Virus record (IMG/VR): IMGVR_UViG_3300045988_001431
Span: 1 to 6,299 of that record
Reading direction: 5' to 3' (one strand)
Source: a virus
DNA: 6,299 nt
Below are positions 864-6,299 of the stretch, one piece after another (position 1 is the first letter of the stretch; each line of letters begins with the position of its first letter). The position numbers and the translations under genes were made by a program. Below the pieces are notes generated by a model that had not been told where the DNA came from, did no database searches, and saw nothing but the letters and a program-made list of their open reading frames with translations.

Positions 864-2693
864 TTAGACCATATGGTTAAATATATCATTTGCATCATTA
901 AGTTTCTTATGCTTAATCATATCACGACAGAATTTCGATGAACGGTTATCCAAACACCTTTGTAAGTCGTCGCACAAATCGTTGTAATTTGCAGGTTGCG
1001 AGGCTTTAAAGGATGGTCCGACCAAACGAGAAAGAGCTGGGGAAAGTAATAATTTTCGGGGGTCATCAAAATGTAAGACGACCGGTTTGATTCCTGCCAT
1101 TCTGTCTCGAATAGTGTACGTGGAAAATGTTCCATCTTCTTCCTCCTTAACGGTCGACACTTCACATCCTGAGGCTGGTAAGTAAAAATATCGCAATAAA
1201 GGGAATTCGCATGTTTCTTGTATTCGCAACGAATCACACATTCGTACATAATCCGCTTTCTTTTCATATTCTAGACCCGTTTTAATGATAAAACTAATAC
1301 GATTGGCAAAAGGATACAAATTATCACCGATGCCAGGGAGATGCCAATTCCGGAGGAACTTGGAGACATAAAGGAACAGCCGATATAACTTATTAATAAA
1401 ATATTCAACATCGACATCGCTAGAACTGTTAACGAACCTAGTAAGACACCTAGCATTATGTAATATAATCTTATCTTCATCAGTTAATATATGATTTAAA
1501 GTTATATATCTATAATATGCACGCACAATAGATAAAATAGATTTACTATCATAATCTACAATGCCGAACCGTGCGATTCTTTTTGGCGCTGTTGTGACTG
1601 CTGAAATAACTCTAGATATCGCAACAACATCATCGCAGCGAGCTCCTGAGAATCTGGGGAGTAAGGAACGGATATACGATATGGGGGGAGTTGACTTGAC
1701 AACGATGCCATTAAAATTATACTCTCTTCCATTAACGACCGAATCGATTTTAGCTTCAATCTGCGCATAGACATCTTCACCCTCATCAAATGTTTCACCT
1801 TTCTCAAAAAATCCAAGGGACGCTCTTGAACGGGGTTTAAACGCACGGCATGAGCGATAAAGAGAGGGAGCAGAAGCCAAGCTGTTAACGTAACTCGCAA
1901 CGTACGAAGCGCATCCACCGTTGGAACATTGGATATCTGAACGACCGAACTTCCAACTTTTATTATGACACTCTCGAATGACATTGGAGATTTCCTTTGA
2001 GTTAAAGAATAATAGCAAATGGAAATGTGGGCGGAAATGGACTGGGCCATACTCGCCAACAGCGTAAAATGATATCTTTTCATTAGTATATCTGTCTAAA
2101 TGTCTACGTAAACGTTTAATATAATTCTGAACATCAACGTAATTCAGAAAAGGGATAAGGTTATTACCGTATCTACGGGAAAGTTCTCCATCCTTACCGT
2201 AAGGTGTAGCGGATTGAGTCTTATGGATAAAAGCACGCATAGAATCAATAGATACAAACCAATTATCCTTAACCGGCTCATACTCACCTGATTCACGGTT
2301 ATATGAAACCGTACCCTGAACCTGAGTAAAGAATATATGCTGTATTCGCTGAGGGTCAGCAGCACAGAATTCAGAAACCGGGACACGAGCATGCTCTTCA
2401 CATCCATAAACAACGCCGGAATCGCTTAAAACATCATCATATTCAGAATGGTATACTTCACAATTGAATAGAGGAACGTGTTCATTATCATAGGTGAGCG
2501 TAACAAACCAACAATACTTAAAGGCACTTCCGGCGGTCTTCACACGCATGGACGCCTTTTGAGCTCGCTTGTGTATACAATAGTCACATTGACCGCAATC
2601 TATAGCGATACGCTTACCTGTATATTTGTTGGTAATGAATGAACGATGTTGACAATGGTCAGCAGCCTTAAGCAAATCCGGCGTATATCTCAT
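864..2693 (-). CDS. VP4: Rolling-circle replication initiation protein (HUH endonuclease, Microviridae VP4 / gene A-like), 609 aa
   Basis: Motif I is FVTLTYD (2487..2507). Motif II is HFHLLLF, the HUH motif (2007..2027). Motif III is YVASYVNS with two Tyr spaced by 3 residues (1881..1904); compare phiX174 A YVAKYVNK, from memory. There is an N-terminal Cys cluster, CGQCDYC, preceded by HCQH. The start ATG at 2693..2691 overlaps the upstream stop as ATGA. The stop is TAA at 866..864. Confidence 0.95.
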   Translation of the reverse strand: MRYTPDLLKAADHCQHRSFITNKYTGKRIAIDCGQCDYCIHKRAQKASMRVKTAGSAFKYCWFVTLTYDNEHVPLFNCEVYHSEYDDVLSDSGVVYGCEEHARVPVSEFCAADPQRIQHIFFTQVQGTVSYNRESGEYEPVKDNWFVSIDSMRAFIHKTQSATPYGKDGELSRRYGNNLIPFLNYVDVQNYIKRLRRHLDRYTNEKISFYAVGEYGPVHFRPHFHLLLFFNSKEISNVIRECHNKSWKFGRSDIQCSNGGCASYVASYVNSLASAPSLYRSCRAFKPRSRASLGFFEKGETFDEGEDVYAQIEAKIDSVVNGREYNFNGIVVKSTPPISYIRSLLPRFSGARCDDVVAISRVISAVTTAPKRIARFGIVDYDSKSILSIVRAYYRYITLNHILTDEDKIILHNARCLTRFVNSSSDVDVEYFINKLYRLFLYVSKFLRNWHLPGIGDNLYPFANRISFIIKTGLEYEKKADYVRMCDSLRIQETCEFPLLRYFYLPASGCEVSTVKEEEDGTFSTYTIRDRMAGIKPVVLHFDDPRKLLLSPALSRLVGPSFKASQPANYNDLCDDLQRCLDNRSSKFCRDMIKHKKLNDANDIFNHMV

Positions 2694-2986
2694 ATTCGAT
2701 TTTCTATATGTTGATGACGATTTCTAGGACCAAAAGAAATGTGCATGAACCCATCATAAGTAATGAACTGGTCATAGGCGACATTATCCATAATATAAGA
2801 CGACAACTGATTATAAGTCGTAGAACCATAAGGCTTAAAGTCAATGGCTTCACCTTTTAAGTGCTGAGAGGTAGAAACACCTCCAGCAGCTTTATTCTGT
2901 TCGGGAGTACGATAAGCACTGGTTATAGTAAAATGATAGTTAAGCTGGAGCAAACCATCAAGAAAATGCATAAGAGCAGGATTCAT
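2690..2986 (-). CDS. Zinc D,D-/L,D-peptidase of the peptidase M15 (M15A / Peptidase_M15_3-like) type, 98 aa; putative cell-wall hydrolase (endolysin)
   Basis: The sequence ITSAYRTPEQNKAAGGVSTSQHLKGEAIDF matches the family pattern S.YR....N...GG...S.H..G.A.D. The H-x6-D zinc-ligand motif HLKGEAID lies at 2840..2863, and a distal His (MHIS, H82) at 2741..2743. I see no N-terminal signal peptide. Both ends form ATGA overlaps with the neighbouring genes. Confidence 0.85.
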   Translation of the reverse strand: MNPALMHFLDGLLQLNYHFTITSAYRTPEQNKAAGGVSTSQHLKGEAIDFKPYGSTTYNQLSSYIMDNVAYDQFITYDGFMHISFGPRNRHQHIENRI

Positions 2987-3069
2987 AAGCCTATCGCATT
3001 AAGAATGTAACCAAGAGCCGCACTGACAGCTCCAATAATAATTTTCCATATATTATTTTTAGTTGCCAT
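2983..3069 (-). CDS. Small 28-aa single-pass membrane peptide (MATKNNIWKIIIGAVSAALGYILNAIGL); candidate holin-like or membrane-targeting partner of the peptidase
   Basis: This is the C-terminal segment of track ORF 2983..3213, starting at the internal ATG 3069..3067. It has a short polar N-terminus followed by a ~22-residue hydrophobic stretch. It exactly fills the 72-nt gap between the 67-aa gene and the peptidase gene. Its ATG lies inside the last codons of the 67-aa gene (AATGGCAACTAA) and its TGA overlaps the peptidase ATG (ATGA). Evidence is positional and compositional only. Confidence 0.4.
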   Translation of the reverse strand: MATKNNIWKIIIGAVSAALGYILNAIGL

Positions 3070-3262
3070 TTTGAGTTGATTTAACAGGTTCGACGAATTG
3101 ATTCTCTTCTTTAATTGAATCCACAATAACAACAAGACCCAACGGAGAAATTCGCTCAGAATAATTTCCAAGACCATCCAAAGAATTGACAATATAAGGC
3201 GCAATAACATCACGTCCGGAATGTTTCTCTTTAATTGAAATAATAAATTTCTGCATAATCAT
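3059..3262 (-). CDS. Hypothetical 67-aa protein (MIMQKFIISIKEKHSGRDVIAPYIVNSLDGLGNY...); function unknown
   Basis: It is the first ORF downstream of the non-coding region on the coding strand and has a balanced, protein-like composition. The competing 76-aa ORF lies in its +1 frame, the frame that is spuriously open throughout this genome. I recognise no motif. Confidence 0.6.
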   Translation of the reverse strand: MIMQKFIISIKEKHSGRDVIAPYIVNSLDGLGNYSERISPLGLVVIVDSIKEENQFVEPVKSTQNGN

Positions 3263-3403
3263 AAATTTTAAACGTTAATAATAATAAGTTGGCTTCTACA
3301 GAGGACAAAGAAAGACATTATTTTTTATATATGCAAGATTTTTCGGATATTTTCCTTTGGTACGGTCTTGTGTGAGTTCAACGTTTATAGACAAGAGAGA
3401 GAG

Positions 3404-3426
3404 AAACTGAGAGGATAACTCAGTTT
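3404..3426 (-). terminator. Perfect 8-bp hairpin (AAACTGAG / loop AGGATAA / CTCAGTTT); candidate intrinsic terminator or attenuator
   Basis: Arms 3404..3411 and 3419..3426 are exact reverse complements. On the minus (mRNA) strand the stem is followed by TTTCTCTCTCTCTTG, and on the plus strand by a T at 3427 that extends the arm's TTT. The stem is AT-rich (3 GC pairs of 8), so it would be a weak terminator at best. Confidence 0.3.
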
Positions 3427-3447
3427 TGCATTCGCATTGAACTAGGG

Positions 3448-3571
3448 GCTTCGCTTGACAAAGTGCAAGATGTATACAGGGTGTATAGGCACGGCAAGGC
3501 AGAAAGTCTGTCTTGCCTTTGCGCACCTACGTGCTAAAATACCGCTTCGCTTCAAGGTAGGTCGCTTCGCT
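3448..3571. repeat. Three direct copies of GCTTCGCT (3448..3455, 3544..3551, 3564..3571); the last two are 20 nt apart
   Basis: Read directly from the sequence: gggGCTTCGCTtgaca, accGCTTCGCTtcaagg, ggtcGCTTCGCTccg. All three copies have the same orientation, as iterons do. Confidence 0.7.
3493..3517. other. 11-bp stem / 3-nt loop hairpin (GGCAAGGCAGA-AAG-TCTGTCTTGCC)
   Basis: Pairing runs 3493-3517 through 3503-3507, with a single G.T pair at 3499/3511. On the plus strand that position is a tolerated wobble. On the minus strand it becomes an A.C mismatch. Confidence 0.6.
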
Positions 3572-3586
3572 CCGTTTTTCGATCAG

Positions 3587-3633
3587 GCCCTACGCGGGCG
3601 GCGGGTGTATATCGCTCAAGCGCCGCGATGGGC
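3587..3633. other. GC-rich imperfect hairpin (GCCC-TA-CGCGG ... CCGCG-AT-GGGC)
   Basis: 3587..3590 pairs with 3630..3633 and 3593..3597 pairs with 3623..3627. The two stems are separated by a 2x2 internal loop, and the apical loop is ~25 nt and contains one GGGTGTATA copy. An alternative register, GCGGCG/CGCCGC, is also possible. Confidence 0.45.
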
Positions 3634-3730
3634 TTTTAGTCCTGAAGTATGTATACAAGAAAGGCCTACTCATCACGAGCGGGCCAATCAAAATTAAACA
3701 CAGAATTACTAAAGCAAAAAGATAGTATAA

Positions 3731-4864
3731 CTAATAACCTATACCATTAGAACCATTACGGGAAACCTGAGCACCGGGGCGCATAGCTCCAATTATATTA
3801 CCAGCACCCTGAAAAATACGAGATCCATAATCTATAGAATTACGTAAACCATAAGATTCAAAGTCCTTTCTGGCATTACCAGCAGACCACTTATAATAGT
3901 CTCGCAAGGCCTTATCTTTAGAATACTGCATATTCTTACGATTATTGACGTTCTTATAATCCCAAAGAGAATCATAATACTGTGTATAGTAAGCCATATT
4001 AGTAGCACTTACAAGAGAATCAGCAGTATCAGAAGCTATCTTATTAGTAATCTTCTGGCCTTGCGTCTGAGCAGCAACCTGGATTGCACGTTGAATTTCA
4101 GTTTGAATCTGTTTCTCAGTCAGAGCTCCTTGTTGTACAAGATTATAAAGATACTGGGCTTTTGTAAACAAATCTGCTTGCTGCTGAGCATCCATATATT
4201 TATTCAGGACAGCTTGAGAATCAGACTGTAAATAAATCTGAGTCGTTTGAGCGGCAGAAAGCTTACCAGCAGTAACAGCGTTATCTAATTGCTGACGCTC
4301 CATAGATTGGTCTAATTCAGCAGAAATACGGCCTGTTTCCTTATTCCAATAACCAGACTCACCGACACCAATATTCTTATAATTAGTATCACCTAACATC
4401 TTTTTTACCATATAAGGAAGAAGAGTGTCTATCTGTTTAGATTCAGATATAAACTTCTTAGCTTGAGCGAATGAAGCCAAAGCAGTATCCACACTTGAAA
4501 AGTCCGGATGAAAAGCCTGATACGGAATAGGACTGGCAGCAGAAGCCTGACCACCAGAGGGCGAAGAACCTGAGCCAGCACCAGTCTGAGCAGCAGAACC
4601 AGACATAAACGGATTCAAACCACGAGAAATCATAGCTTCAGGAGAATTATATTCTCGCGATTCATCAACCATCTTTTCTTGCCAATCACGTTGTTTCTTG
4701 GCTTCCAGCATATTGAACTTATTGGTAAGCTGAGTATTACGGAAATTAGCACGATTAGCAGAGGATTGCTGAAGAGCACCTCCAATAGCACTAATAGCAG
4801 CACCAATAAACTGCGGTTGGTTGCATGGAGAGAGCAAGCTCTCTCCAATTTCTAGAAACTTCAT
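3731..4864 (-). CDS. VP2: Minor capsid / DNA pilot protein (Microviridae VP2 / H-like), 377 aa
   Basis: There is an N-terminal small-residue hydrophobic segment, FIGAAISAIGGAL. FNMLEAKKQRDWQEKMVDESREYNSPEAMISRGLNPF (about 4607..4717) matches the FN..EA.K.RDWQE.M...Y......GLNP pattern I recall from gokusho/alpa-type VP2. It is followed by a Gly/Ser-rich linker and then a long Gln/Ala-rich region that is probably coiled coil. The start ATG 4864..4862 overlaps the upstream stop as ATGA. Confidence 0.85.
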   Translation of the reverse strand: MKFLEIGESLLSPCNQPQFIGAAISAIGGALQQSSANRANFRNTQLTNKFNMLEAKKQRDWQEKMVDESREYNSPEAMISRGLNPFMSGSAAQTGAGSGSSPSGGQASAASPIPYQAFHPDFSSVDTALASFAQAKKFISESKQIDTLLPYMVKKMLGDTNYKNIGVGESGYWNKETGRISAELDQSMERQQLDNAVTAGKLSAAQTTQIYLQSDSQAVLNKYMDAQQQADLFTKAQYLYNLVQQGALTEKQIQTEIQRAIQVAAQTQGQKITNKIASDTADSLVSATNMAYYTQYYDSLWDYKNVNNRKNMQYSKDKALRDYYKWSAGNARKDFESYGLRNSIDYGSRIFQGAGNIIGAMRPGAQVSRNGSNGIGY

Positions 4865-5307
4865 TGTGCAGCTGCAGCAGGTGCGGAAGCCTCAGGGGCG
4901 GGCGCTGACTGTTCCTCTGCCAACATACTCTTTGCGTAAGCAGTCAATTCAGAATGCTCAGAGGCCAACTGTTGTAAAACAGCCTGACGCTCTGACATAG
5001 ACTGACAGTGACGGGAGATAACAGACGCAAAACGTTCTTCATCCGTCATACCATCCATTACAGTAGACTGAGTAGGATGCATTTGAGCCAATATATTATT
5101 AACATTCATATCGCCAAGTAAACGACGATATTTTTCCTGATTCAGAAGAATGGAGGTCATATCCATAAACTGGAATTTTCCAGCTTCGACTTCTTCCAAC
5201 ATAACTGAATCATACGCAGATTCTTGATAAACGGGGTTTCCCTCAACAAATTGAGGAACATAATCATCCGGAATTAATTCCTTAGGGACATAAGCAAATT
5301 TTCTCAT
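4861..5307 (-). CDS. 148-aa acidic protein; putative internal scaffolding protein (VP3-like), assigned by position and composition only
   Basis: MRKFAYVPKELIPDDYVPQFVEGNPVYQ... starts at ATG 5307..5305, 12 nt after the capsid stop TAA (5322..5320). The track's start at 5319 is a TTG. The protein is acidic with an Ala/Pro-rich tail (SAPAPEASAPAAAAQ). The functional call is weak because I recognise no diagnostic motif. Confidence 0.8.
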   Translation of the reverse strand: MRKFAYVPKELIPDDYVPQFVEGNPVYQESAYDSVMLEEVEAGKFQFMDMTSILLNQEKYRRLLGDMNVNNILAQMHPTQSTVMDGMTDEERFASVISRHCQSMSERQAVLQQLASEHSELTAYAKSMLAEEQSAPAPEASAPAAAAQ

Positions 5308-5319
5308 AACGACACACAA

Positions 5320-6299
5320 TTAATAAGGTAAACCATTTCTATCCAAGTTCTGAACAGCGTAGACTTTGAAATTCACATTACACAGCAATTGGTCATAAGC
5401 TACATTATATGCAGTAGTAGAAACCTGAGATTGGAATATAGAATTCAATTGCTGAGGTCGAACCTTGAAAGATTGATAAGAAAATGAAGACTGACCAGAA
5501 ACCTGAGGCTGAGAACCTTGTAAAGGAGCAGCCCAAGACTGATAAGCAGTAAAGGGGCGGAAAGCGCCGTGAACAGTATCTATATTAGATTTCCATTGCC
5601 AATAGCGAAGATTATAACCGATATTACCTGTAGGACAAGACGGACTATTATTCAAAGCCAAAGCCGGAACAGGCTGCATACCTAATTGGTCGAATGCAGG
5701 TTGCGGAAAATCAGTAATACTAGTACACAACAATTGGGGGTTATGACCTTTTAATGCCCAATCCAATAAAGGCACAGAGTGATATACAATCATCAATACA
5801 CAATGTTCAGCACCACAATCATAAGTGAGAGTATGACCGGAATTAGAACCAACACCTTTACCAGCGATGACAGCCTGAGAAGTATCGGCTTCAAGATTGG
5901 TATTAAGAACTTCATTAATACTAATTACATTAGACCAACCTCCAACGAAATGAGAGTGATTACCCATATACTCAGGGGCTTTAATGCCGAATTGGGCAGC
6001 CATCTGGTCCGAATAATCCTTACTAGAGAACTGGACTACTTCTTTCCAGCGCTGGAGGTATTCAGTTGCACGGATTGACAAGGCAGATAGGTCAGAATTA
6101 AGAGTAGCATAACGAGTAGCGGAAGAAGTATTACTAGTAATAACAGAAGTAGAGGAGGGAGAGTTCATAATAGAACCAACAGAACCGGCACCCAAAGGAG
6201 AAGCATAAACACGGGACGGACTATCGGAAGAAGCTAATGCACCAGGCATAACAGCTACCGAACCATACTGAGAGGATGGGAGAACTCCCATAAAATAGT
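5320..6299 (-). CDS. VP1: Major capsid protein, C-terminal part. The unique sequence is 5320..6200; 6201..6299 duplicates 1..99.
   Basis: Track ORF 5320..6291 begins at an internal Met. The frame stays open to the window edge (..DYF-MGVLPSS..) and joins 1..847 in phase. The joined CDS is 1728 nt, giving 575 aa plus a stop. It ends ...LDRNGLPY-TAA. Confidence 0.93.
   Translation of the reverse strand, partial: YFMGVLPSSQYGSVAVMPGALASSDSPSRVYASPLGAGSVGSIMNSPSSTSVITSNTSSATRYATLNSDLSALSIRATEYLQRWKEVVQFSSKDYSDQMAAQFGIKAPEYMGNHSHFVGGWSNVISINEVLNTNLEADTSQAVIAGKGVGSNSGHTLTYDCGAEHCVLMIVYHSVPLLDWALKGHNPQLLCTSITDFPQPAFDQLGMQPVPALALNNSPSCPTGNIGYNLRYWQWKSNIDTVHGAFRPFTAYQSWAAPLQGSQPQVSGQSSFSYQSFKVRPQQLNSIFQSQVSTTAYNVAYDQLLCNVNFKVYAVQNLDRNGLPY
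6201..6299. repeat. Terminal direct repeat, copy 2: circular-contig overlap, identical to 1..99
   Basis: Same as copy 1. De Bruijn assemblers commonly leave an exact overlap of k-mer-like length on circular contigs. Confidence 0.97.

Follow-up and report, generated by a model that had tools for sequence, protein, structure and literature searches.

The window analysed here, the whole 6,299-nt stretch of IMG/VR virus record IMGVR_UViG_3300045988_001431, is a circular microvirus genome of ~6.2 kb (~6200 nt plus a 99-nt terminal repeat, positions 1-99 recurring as 6201-6299). All of its long open reading frames (ORFs) lie on the minus strand, below called the gene strand, and the ORF list leaves a single long non-coding stretch, 3263-3730, which runs from the pilot-gene stop to where the first small early ORF starts. 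Within this stretch lies a conserved structured element of ~270 nt (3370-3640) which, on balance, we take to be a complementary-strand origin, i.e. a single-strand initiation signal, possibly also holding the nick site for the phage Rep protein. The element most likely works in cis, as folded single-stranded DNA (ssDNA) on the packaged, gene-sense strand. We favour this reading because of the GNA mini-hairpins on the gene strand, the Watson-Crick nature of the covariation, the presence of the element throughout the clade and its location, with a terminator-like hairpin on one side and the early promoter on the other. An earlier sequence-only reading of the region had listed four candidate roles with no preference among them, of which a complementary-strand origin or primosome-loading structure came first, and that is the one favoured by the evidence.

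The 3370-3640 core is the most conserved DNA of the genome. Searches of 50,697 phage records, by megablast of the genome and by blastn at a word size of 11, matched 34 GenBank microviruses from lemur, dog and human samples, in which the element is ~78% identical, so the conservation among related microviruses that the sequence-only reading had proposed to look for is there; in several of these genomes, e.g. Dulem virus 238, only 3370-3642 aligns at megablast level. Scanning IMG/VR with a 17-mer and a second pattern, both from invariant blocks, located the element in ~125 microvirus-sized contigs, and altogether it is present in ~200 related microvirus genomes. Among 80 relatives fetched by their Rep (59-90% amino-acid identity), the left of its two domains, the junction domain, is found in 80 and both domains in 78. 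Beyond those relatives, Rep identity falls to 30% or less. The nearest outgroups (mar62 and Dulem 257, 244 and 263, with Reps 27-30% identical) have a long non-coding gap at the same place, showing the same architecture with different helix sequences, and two of them, Dulem 257 (49.6 bits, E 4e-9) and mar62 (22.8 bits, E 0.008), are picked up where expected and on the expected strand by a covariance model trained solely on ingroup sequences. The element is real and under strong constraint, far beyond chance, and its recognisable version in genomes with such distant Reps shows that it is old.

A strand-specific and DNA-specific motif provides the decisive clue as to which strand folds. Three GCTTCGCT direct repeats (GCTTCGC), to which the sequence-only reading had drawn attention, are indeed present at 3448, 3544 and 3564, but they are better read on the gene strand, where each becomes a GCGAAGC mini-hairpin (GC-GAA-GC). 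Defining the motif as N-C-GNA-G-N', a two-base-pair stem closing a GNA triloop, we counted two to four of them on the gene strand of each of the 129 distinct copies (238 GAA and 162 GGA loops); on the plus strand, 123 of the 129 have none, and shuffled sequences average 0.25 per element. The whole window holds three gene-strand motifs of the GNA type, all of them within the island, and the four outgroup gaps hold 16 (GNA or GNNA loops) on the gene strand vs. 2 antisense. The hairpin after helix P1 is AAGCGAAGCCC in 111 of the 129 copies and changes from GAA to GGA in 7 (AAGCGGAGCCC in 5 and ATGCGGAGCCC in 2), whilst the third site reads GGAGCGGAGCGA in 115, GGAGCGAAGCGA in 13 and GGAGCGGAGCGT in one; loop variation at both sites is confined to the N of GNA. 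The small hairpin P3 reads TGCGAAGCA (56/129), TCCGAAGGA (34/129), TGCGAAAGCA (12/129) or TACGAAGTA (9/129) on the gene strand, and the pair outside its C-G closing pair covaries (GC, CC/GG, AC/GT). According to a 2026 review by the discoverers of the mini-hairpins, GCGNAGC and GCGNNAGC are extraordinarily stable DNA structures that are poorly bound by single-strand-binding protein (SSB), and members of this class are found at the ssDNA primase priming site of G4 (GCGAAAGC), at the same priming site in St-1 and alpha3 (GCGTTAGC), in RSF1010 ssiA, which is read by the RepB' primase (CCGAAGG), and in the single-stranded hairpin promoters of N4 (GCGGAGC and GAA loops) (PMC13037366). Changing the loop from GAA to AAA is reported to let SSB bind again (PMC13037366). 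Copies of the element contain GCGAAAGC, CCGAAGG and GCGGAGC, and all three lie on the gene strand. The gene strand is also T-rich (33% overall and 43.5% at third codon positions), in which it presumably resembles the packaged strand of phiX174. From this T-richness and from what is known of the family, we infer that the gene strand is the packaged one.

For the fold, we aligned 38 representatives of <93% identity (mean 84%). The core model finally adopted comprises ten helices and 46 pairs, with 97.7% of cells paired vs. 29-42% when partners are slid by 1-3 columns, and double compensatory changes at 18 pairs vs. 10.0 +/- 1.4 in column shuffles and 2-4 in slid controls. The ten predicted helices thus have support from compensatory changes, and the structure is conserved along with the sequence. 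In the junction domain, P1 encloses P2, P3 and a conserved unpaired stretch (gene strand ...CTCTTGTCTATAAACG) that keeps a YCTYGYC-(T)TAT(A/T)T pattern even in the outgroups. The right part is a row of hairpins, namely P5, P6, P7, the third tiny hairpin, P9 and P10; most relatives have P7 (GGAGCG-GAA-CGCTCC, plus strand), which in this genome is replaced by the second mini-hairpin. Outgroups retain the P9 loop sequence TACGCG and have AACC...GGTT at the position of P10. The nearly invariant 17-mer at 3597-3613 is a candidate protein contact or nick site. The description of the island as GC-rich and hairpin-dense is borne out (GC 0.51 in 3401-3700 vs. roughly 0.30-0.45 elsewhere; hairpins at 3493-3517, 3523-3534, 3587-3599 and 3611-3629). 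Two other motifs of the sequence-only reading stand in part: the symmetric TGTATA array has four copies (3471, 3482, 3606 and 3650), of which only those at 3482 and 3606 are conserved and the others are lineage-specific, so that the symmetric array is not itself conserved, and both members of the AGGCC(C)TAC pair exist, but only AGGCCCTAC at 3585 is conserved in relatives.

The covarying pairs are strictly Watson-Crick. Among the 129 copies, minor wobble variants amount to 16 vs. 17 cells in the two orientations, ~0.3% each, and since they are nearly equal on both strands the covariation itself favours neither; their near-absence does fit DNA stems better than RNA. This bears directly on the proposal that the island encodes a structured non-coding RNA (ncRNA). 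In its strongest form, a ~270-nt RNA, antisense to every gene, would be transcribed from the plus strand, divergently from the early promoter, with ten local and two long-range helices (P4 and P8) and a partner in phage or host. RNAalifold does give a more stable fold for the plus strand (-56.3 kcal/mol, 63 pairs) than for the gene strand (-37.9 kcal/mol, 43 pairs), with 389 plus-strand G.U cells vs. 7 A.C in its helices; P4 and P8 are made of the most invariant blocks, their sole changes being U/C opposite G or G/A opposite U, and ~24 of 142 relatives have a plus-strand TAnnTTTG box at -50. However, the 389-to-7 count is biased, as the helices were picked with G.U pairs allowed, and most of the excess comes from P4 and P8, neither of which has a double compensatory change. 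P8 is disrupted in 12 of the 129 copies, and the C/U polymorphism cited in its favour corresponds to the N of a gene-strand GNA loop; P4 clashes with an extension of P1 and with the mini-hairpin after P1 (P3b), which covaries in outgroups. A helix-by-helix comparison over the 129 copies traced the strand asymmetry to the G.U-rich helix choice of RNAalifold, which takes away this support for an antisense RNA; once the bias is removed, no strand-specific wobble is left among the truly covarying pairs. Convincing plus-strand signals are likewise missing: most genomes lack a good Bacteroidota promoter there, none has an intrinsic terminator, and scans for sigma-70-type promoters do not rise above shuffles. 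UUC triloops, the plus-strand form of the small hairpins, are not known to be specially stable in RNA. Rfam 15, searched at a permissive threshold, gives no family match, in agreement with the earlier statement that no known RNA family could be assigned; the best hit in the window (14.9 bits vs. a 40-bit cut-off) falls on the terminator-like hairpin outside the element, three relatives give nothing at E <= 1, and a tRNA/tmRNA search of the window found none. We therefore consider an antisense RNA rather improbable, and retain it as an option mainly because several invariant unpaired blocks lack an explanation. If true, it would be the first ncRNA gene known in Microviridae, conserved across gut Bacteroidales microviruses.

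The surroundings of the element argue along the same lines. A terminator-like hairpin at 3691-3660, with its U-run on the gene strand, precedes the element, although its sequence is not kept among relatives. On the other side lies the early promoter region, in which the -7-like box is imperfect in this genome (TTTCTTTG at 3306-3313, gene strand), while 90 of 142 relatives have a perfect Bacteroidota-type -7 box (TAnnTTTG) at the equivalent place, ~65 nt past the left edge of the element and oriented away from it, with TTTG ~17-20 nt further upstream on the gene strand. With a terminator-like hairpin before it and the early promoter beyond it, the element lies outside the mRNAs, between transcription units, which fits a role at the DNA level. 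The same arrangement bears on the idea that the structure works in gene-sense RNA, either at the end of the late mRNA, as a structured 3' end or terminator region, or at the start of the early mRNA, as its leader. The strand-neutral core helices would form in a sense RNA too, the pilot-gene stop directly abuts the element in OP549867 and MG945488, and certain loops of the outgroups (GUAA, GCGA) would, as RNA, form GNRA tetraloops. Against this, the hairpin and T-run come before the element, both here and in variants that have the junction domain only, and the early promoter lies beyond it and faces away. GAA and GGA triloops are not known to be specially stable in RNA. In DNA, these dominant triloops are specially stable (PMC13037366), and this, together with the almost complete lack of G.U pairs in the helices, makes a sense-RNA function very unlikely.

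A different question is whether the element serves synthesis of the viral strand. The junction domain may also, or instead, carry the Rep nick site, because it is never lost and adjoins the promoter of the Rep operon. If the main role were that of a viral-strand (rolling-circle) origin, Rep would nick the gene strand in the unpaired stretch within P1 (YCTYGYC-TATAAACG) or beside P10 (GCGATATACACCC), the hairpins would position the site, and a complementary-strand origin could coexist with it. The retention of the junction domain in 80 of 80 Rep relatives would fit, as would its location 60-110 nt upstream of the Rep operon promoter; in rolling-circle plasmids, double-strand origins sit upstream of the rep promoter. 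Its unpaired sequence is conserved in the clade and drifts in the outgroups along with Rep, and similarity blocks of relatives break off at either end of the element, as they would if an origin were a hot spot of recombination. The P1-enclosed stretch has a faint resemblance to the phiX174 viral-strand origin CAACTTG/ATATTAATAAC, but this likeness is weak, and phiX-type microviruses have their viral-strand origin within the Rep gene and not between genes. For the Rep family PF23343, a nick motif is not defined in these phages, and the literature ties GNA mini-hairpins to priming and single-strand promoters, not to Rep nicking (PMC13037366). We regard it as unlikely that this is the main role. 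Independent of this assignment, the similarity blocks stop exactly at 3370 and 3642 (1152-3642 for Dulem 243 and 3370-6152 for Dulem 226), and the early and the late gene module have apparently been swapped around the element, as at a recombination hot spot or an origin.

The sequence-only reading had also raised a host-derived attachment or recombination site, which in a Xer/dif-type form would serve lysogeny, as proposed for Bacteroidales microvirus proviruses. The TGTATA motif resembles the spacer of E. coli dif. Dif-like sites have been described at provirus ends by Krupovic and Forterre, and that position corresponds to this intergenic region (PMC3091885). Yet the window has no dif-like site at up to 3 mismatches (query ATAATRTAYATTATGTHAA), and a 28-bp recombination site would not account for 270 nt of covarying helices. 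A scan of 185,579 species genomes (596 Gb) with the 17-mer, a pattern too short for that much sequence, gave at least 120 matches, and the 120 listed are all chance hits with unrelated flanks, about what is expected of a 17-mer in 596 Gb; this is suggestive, but only suggestive, of absence of the element from host genomes. The ~200 relatives are all on ~6-kb circles or concatemers without host flank, with no integrated copy among them, and an attachment site is therefore extremely unlikely. An integrated prophage was rejected because every examined contig of >6.5 kb is a mixed-strain concatemer: L319 (14.8 kb), L320 (10.1 kb), L024, L028, L124 and L249 are head-to-tail repeats with units 75-100% identical and no host flanks, and look like mixed-strain assembly products or true multimers, not prophages.

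Evidence on the host comes from clustered regularly interspaced short palindromic repeats (CRISPR). Two IMG/VR contigs filed as viral share a perfect 26-nt match with the left end of the element, and type I-C CRISPR-Cas loci (Cas5c, Cas8c, Cas7, Cas4 and Cas1c, with ~20 repeats, GTCACACCCTACGTGGGTGTGTGGATTGAAAC) are present at L262:6329-13100 and L267:4500-6800 (e.g. IMGVR_UViG_3300029016_000046). Twelve of 18 spacers match this microvirus clade, one of them at the left end of the element, and the nearest named relatives of Cas8c are from Bacteroides, Parabacteroides distasonis, Phocaeicola sartorii and B. thetaiotaomicron (81-87% identity). Spacers and Cas8c relatives point to gut Bacteroidales as the host of the clade, in agreement with the promoter boxes. 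The Rep relatives include one 'Bacteroides' phage record. Spacer polarity was considered as a read-out of transcription and dropped as uninformative, given that type I-C targets DNA and the split is 6:6.

That a protein might be translated from the region, named by the sequence-only reading as a possible refutation, was checked and rejected. No frame stays open across relatives (among the 38 sequences, the longest stop-free runs go down to 18-26 aa in every frame), most indels would shift the frame (232 of 287 gap runs have lengths not divisible by three), and codon periodicity is absent, variable columns being spread 52/51/49 by position modulo 3. GenBank has 'hypothetical protein' genes over the element in PP511392.1 (3352-3678), OP549867.1 (3618-3914), PP511330.1 (3581-3784) and PP511799.1 (3403-3555); with no frame conserved among relatives, these calls look spurious.

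How, then, could the element work as a complementary-strand origin? We propose that the circular single strand enters a Bacteroidales cell and SSB coats most of it, while the ~270-nt stretch would fold into the junction domain (P1/P2/P3) and the hairpins P5, P6, P7, P9 and P10. Two to four very stable GC-GNA-GC mini-hairpins would cap this fold and leave defined short unpaired stretches exposed and free of SSB, to which a host priming enzyme would bind, most plausibly DnaG primase by analogy with G4, St-1 and alpha3. An RNA primer would be made there and extended by host DNA polymerase into the complementary strand. Pfam matches among the phage proteins are limited to Rep, the M15 peptidase and the capsid protein, and no primase is encoded. 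The closest parallels are the primase-dependent origins of G4, St-1, alpha3 and phiK, which belong to the same family, Microviridae, and have their signal in a non-coding stretch of the packaged strand, as does this genome if the gene strand is the packaged one. These G4-type origins also consist of several stable hairpins with GCGNAGC or GCGNNAGC mini-hairpins, in a region thought to stay SSB-free and to recruit the priming enzyme, and 12 copies of the element have G4's own GCGAAAGC at P3. There are clear differences: the element has a three-way junction domain and two to four GNA triloops instead of one GNNA hairpin, its host belongs to the Bacteroidales and not to the Enterobacteria, and at ~270 nt it is about twice as long as the G4 origin (~140 nt). 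In RSF1010, ssiA and ssiB have a hairpin capped by CCGAAGG, which corresponds exactly to TCCGAAGGA at P3 in 34 of the 129 copies; unlike the element, ssiA is a 40-nt signal that is read by a plasmid-encoded primase (RepB'). The single-strand origins ssoA and ssoU and the M13 minus-strand origin are likewise folded, modular and partly dispensable non-coding regions. They are 150-300 nt long, orientation-dependent and highly folded, with structure conserved more than sequence, they depend on RNA polymerase, and such single-strand origins sit close to the double-strand origin and the rep promoter. The ssoA hallmark CS-6 (TAGCGT/A) is, however, absent from both strands of 3368-3650, and no promoter-like hairpin of the sso/M13 type was identified in the element. 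The early promoters of N4 have short G+C stems closed by a loop of three bases, GGA or GAA (GCGGAGC), comparable to the GGAGCGGAGCGA of 115 copies, but N4 brings its own virion RNA polymerase, which this phage does not have, and its hairpins are extruded from duplex DNA. Signals of the kind proposed here are known, while the form is new: ~270 nt, a junction domain, several GNA mini-hairpins, a Bacteroidales host and no similarity to G4 or phiX.

Several points weigh against a complementary-strand origin. The support is computational, with the packaged strand, the priming enzyme and the start site of priming inferred for these phages, and the blastn search (11-base words) against the phage records found only the 34 clade members, with no sequence similarity to the origins of G4, St-1, alpha3 or phiX174. 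Several invariant unpaired blocks are not accounted for by the fold model, and these could pair as G.U-rich long-range helices on the plus strand, where a few wobble pairs at helix ends also alternate between U-G and U-A. Folding of single sequences barely discriminates (z = -1.9 for gene-strand DNA, -1.5 for plus-strand DNA and -1.1 for plus-strand RNA), and P3 of the outgroup Dulem 263 has a non-GNA loop. Moreover, five otherwise complete genomes (L254, L266, L249, L271 and L261) keep the left half of the element without the right, so the right-hand domain is not essential. In L254 and L271 (e.g. L271:1900-2160), a clear gene-strand terminator, hairpin plus T-run, takes its place.

The element is thus modular. 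Four of the five left-half-only genomes have a conserved TTTTTTCCGAAAGTA, again with a C-GAAA-G loop. A 35-nt hairpin insert (GTCCTAGATCCATTACTAATAGATCCAGG) is present in the spacer of L052, L090, L092 and L086, and its lone wobble pair fits the gene strand. Extra sequence also separates the two domains in L014 (~135 nt, 3617-3754) and L073 (~60 nt, 2583-2645).

Coordinates of the element and its neighbours are collected in Table 1, with genes assigned by Pfam search and from the annotation of relatives. The claim that the island occupies the only non-coding region holds in so far as 3263-3730 is the sole long one; the accompanying claim that all other gaps are of 16 nt or less is slightly overstated, with 17 nt between Rep and capsid genes and ~70 nt at 2987-3058 unless ORF 2983-3213 is real. 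This ORF (minus strand, 76 aa, GTG start) overlaps both the 67-aa ORF and the peptidase gene. Relatives are annotated with a single 64-aa gene there, followed by a ~70-nt gap before the peptidase gene, which suggests a second, smaller non-coding gap in the genome.

Table 1 Features of the window (positions in the window; minus is the gene strand).
Feature	Position	Strand	Details
Rep	864-2693	minus	Pfam PF23343
M15 peptidase	2690-2986	minus	Pfam
67-aa ORF, first small early ORF	3059-3262	minus	ORF list
Whole intergenic region	3263-3730		468 nt; pilot gene stop to first small early ORF start
AT-rich early promoter region	3263-3369	minus	directed away from the element
Conserved structured element	3370-3640	minus	conservation, covariation, strand-specific mini-hairpins
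Junction domain	3375-3443	minus	P1, unpaired stretch, P2 and P3; kept in every genome, recognisable in outgroups
P1	3375-3381 with 3437-3443	minus	3/7 pairs double compensatory
Unpaired stretch within P1	3382-3403	minus	CTCTCTCTCTTGTCTATAAACG
P2	3404-3411 with 3419-3426	minus	6/8 pairs double compensatory; gene-strand loop TTATCCT
P3, small hairpin	3428-3435	minus	inside the junction domain
Mini-hairpin GCGAAGC after P1	3448-3454	minus	tiny hairpin 3447-3455 in the core model; then invariant CCCTAGTT on the gene strand
Variable spacer	3456-3478		holds TGTATACA at 3471-3478; deleted in some relatives
Conserved block	3479-3492		plus strand GGGTGTATAGGCAC; core GTATAG.CACG invariant; recognisable in Dulem 257 and mar62
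Hairpin P5	3493-3517	minus	GGCAAGG...TCTTGCC (plus strand); 4/6 pairs double compensatory
Hairpin P6	3523-3534	minus	GCAC/GTGC; A-T to G-C in 10/38 representatives, 28/129 copies
Mini-hairpin GCGAAGC, second copy	3544-3550	minus	replaces P7 in this lineage
Mini-hairpin GCGAAGC, third site	3564-3570	minus	GCGGAGC in most relatives
Hairpin P9	3587-3599	minus	GCCC-TACGC-GGGC (plus strand); covariation CG to UA, GC, AU
17-mer	3597-3613		GGCGGCGGGTGTATATC (gene strand GATATACACCCGCCGCC); nearly invariant
Hairpin P10	3611-3629	minus	ATCGC...GCGAT; GC to AU or CG at one pair
Terminator-like hairpin	3660-3691	minus	GGCCCGCUC-GUGAU-GAGUAGGCC then UUUCUUGU; 3' of the pilot gene, before the element
DNA pilot protein	3731-4864	minus	annotation of relatives
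152-aa ORF	4861-5319	minus	outgroup relatives annotate an internal scaffolding protein
Major capsid protein	spans window ends	minus	Phage_F

In the mammalian gut, microviruses related to Alpavirinae rank with the commonest phages. In the searchable literature, we found no description of how replication of these microviruses starts in Bacteroidales, nor of a microvirus RNA or conserved intergenic element that matches this one. The present analysis defines a ~270-nt conserved element with an explicit fold and points to the mini-hairpins as its functional core. There are practical gains as well, in that the GenBank hypothetical-protein calls over the element look spurious and a host within the Bacteroidales is indicated for the clade by the CRISPR evidence. 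If the reading is confirmed, mini-hairpins would be linked to priming in another phylum of bacteria besides that of the enterobacterial phages, and there would be a handle on the initiation specificity of Bacteroidales primase. The element could also serve as an origin cassette in ssDNA vectors for Bacteroides, and as a highly conserved marker with which to detect the clade.

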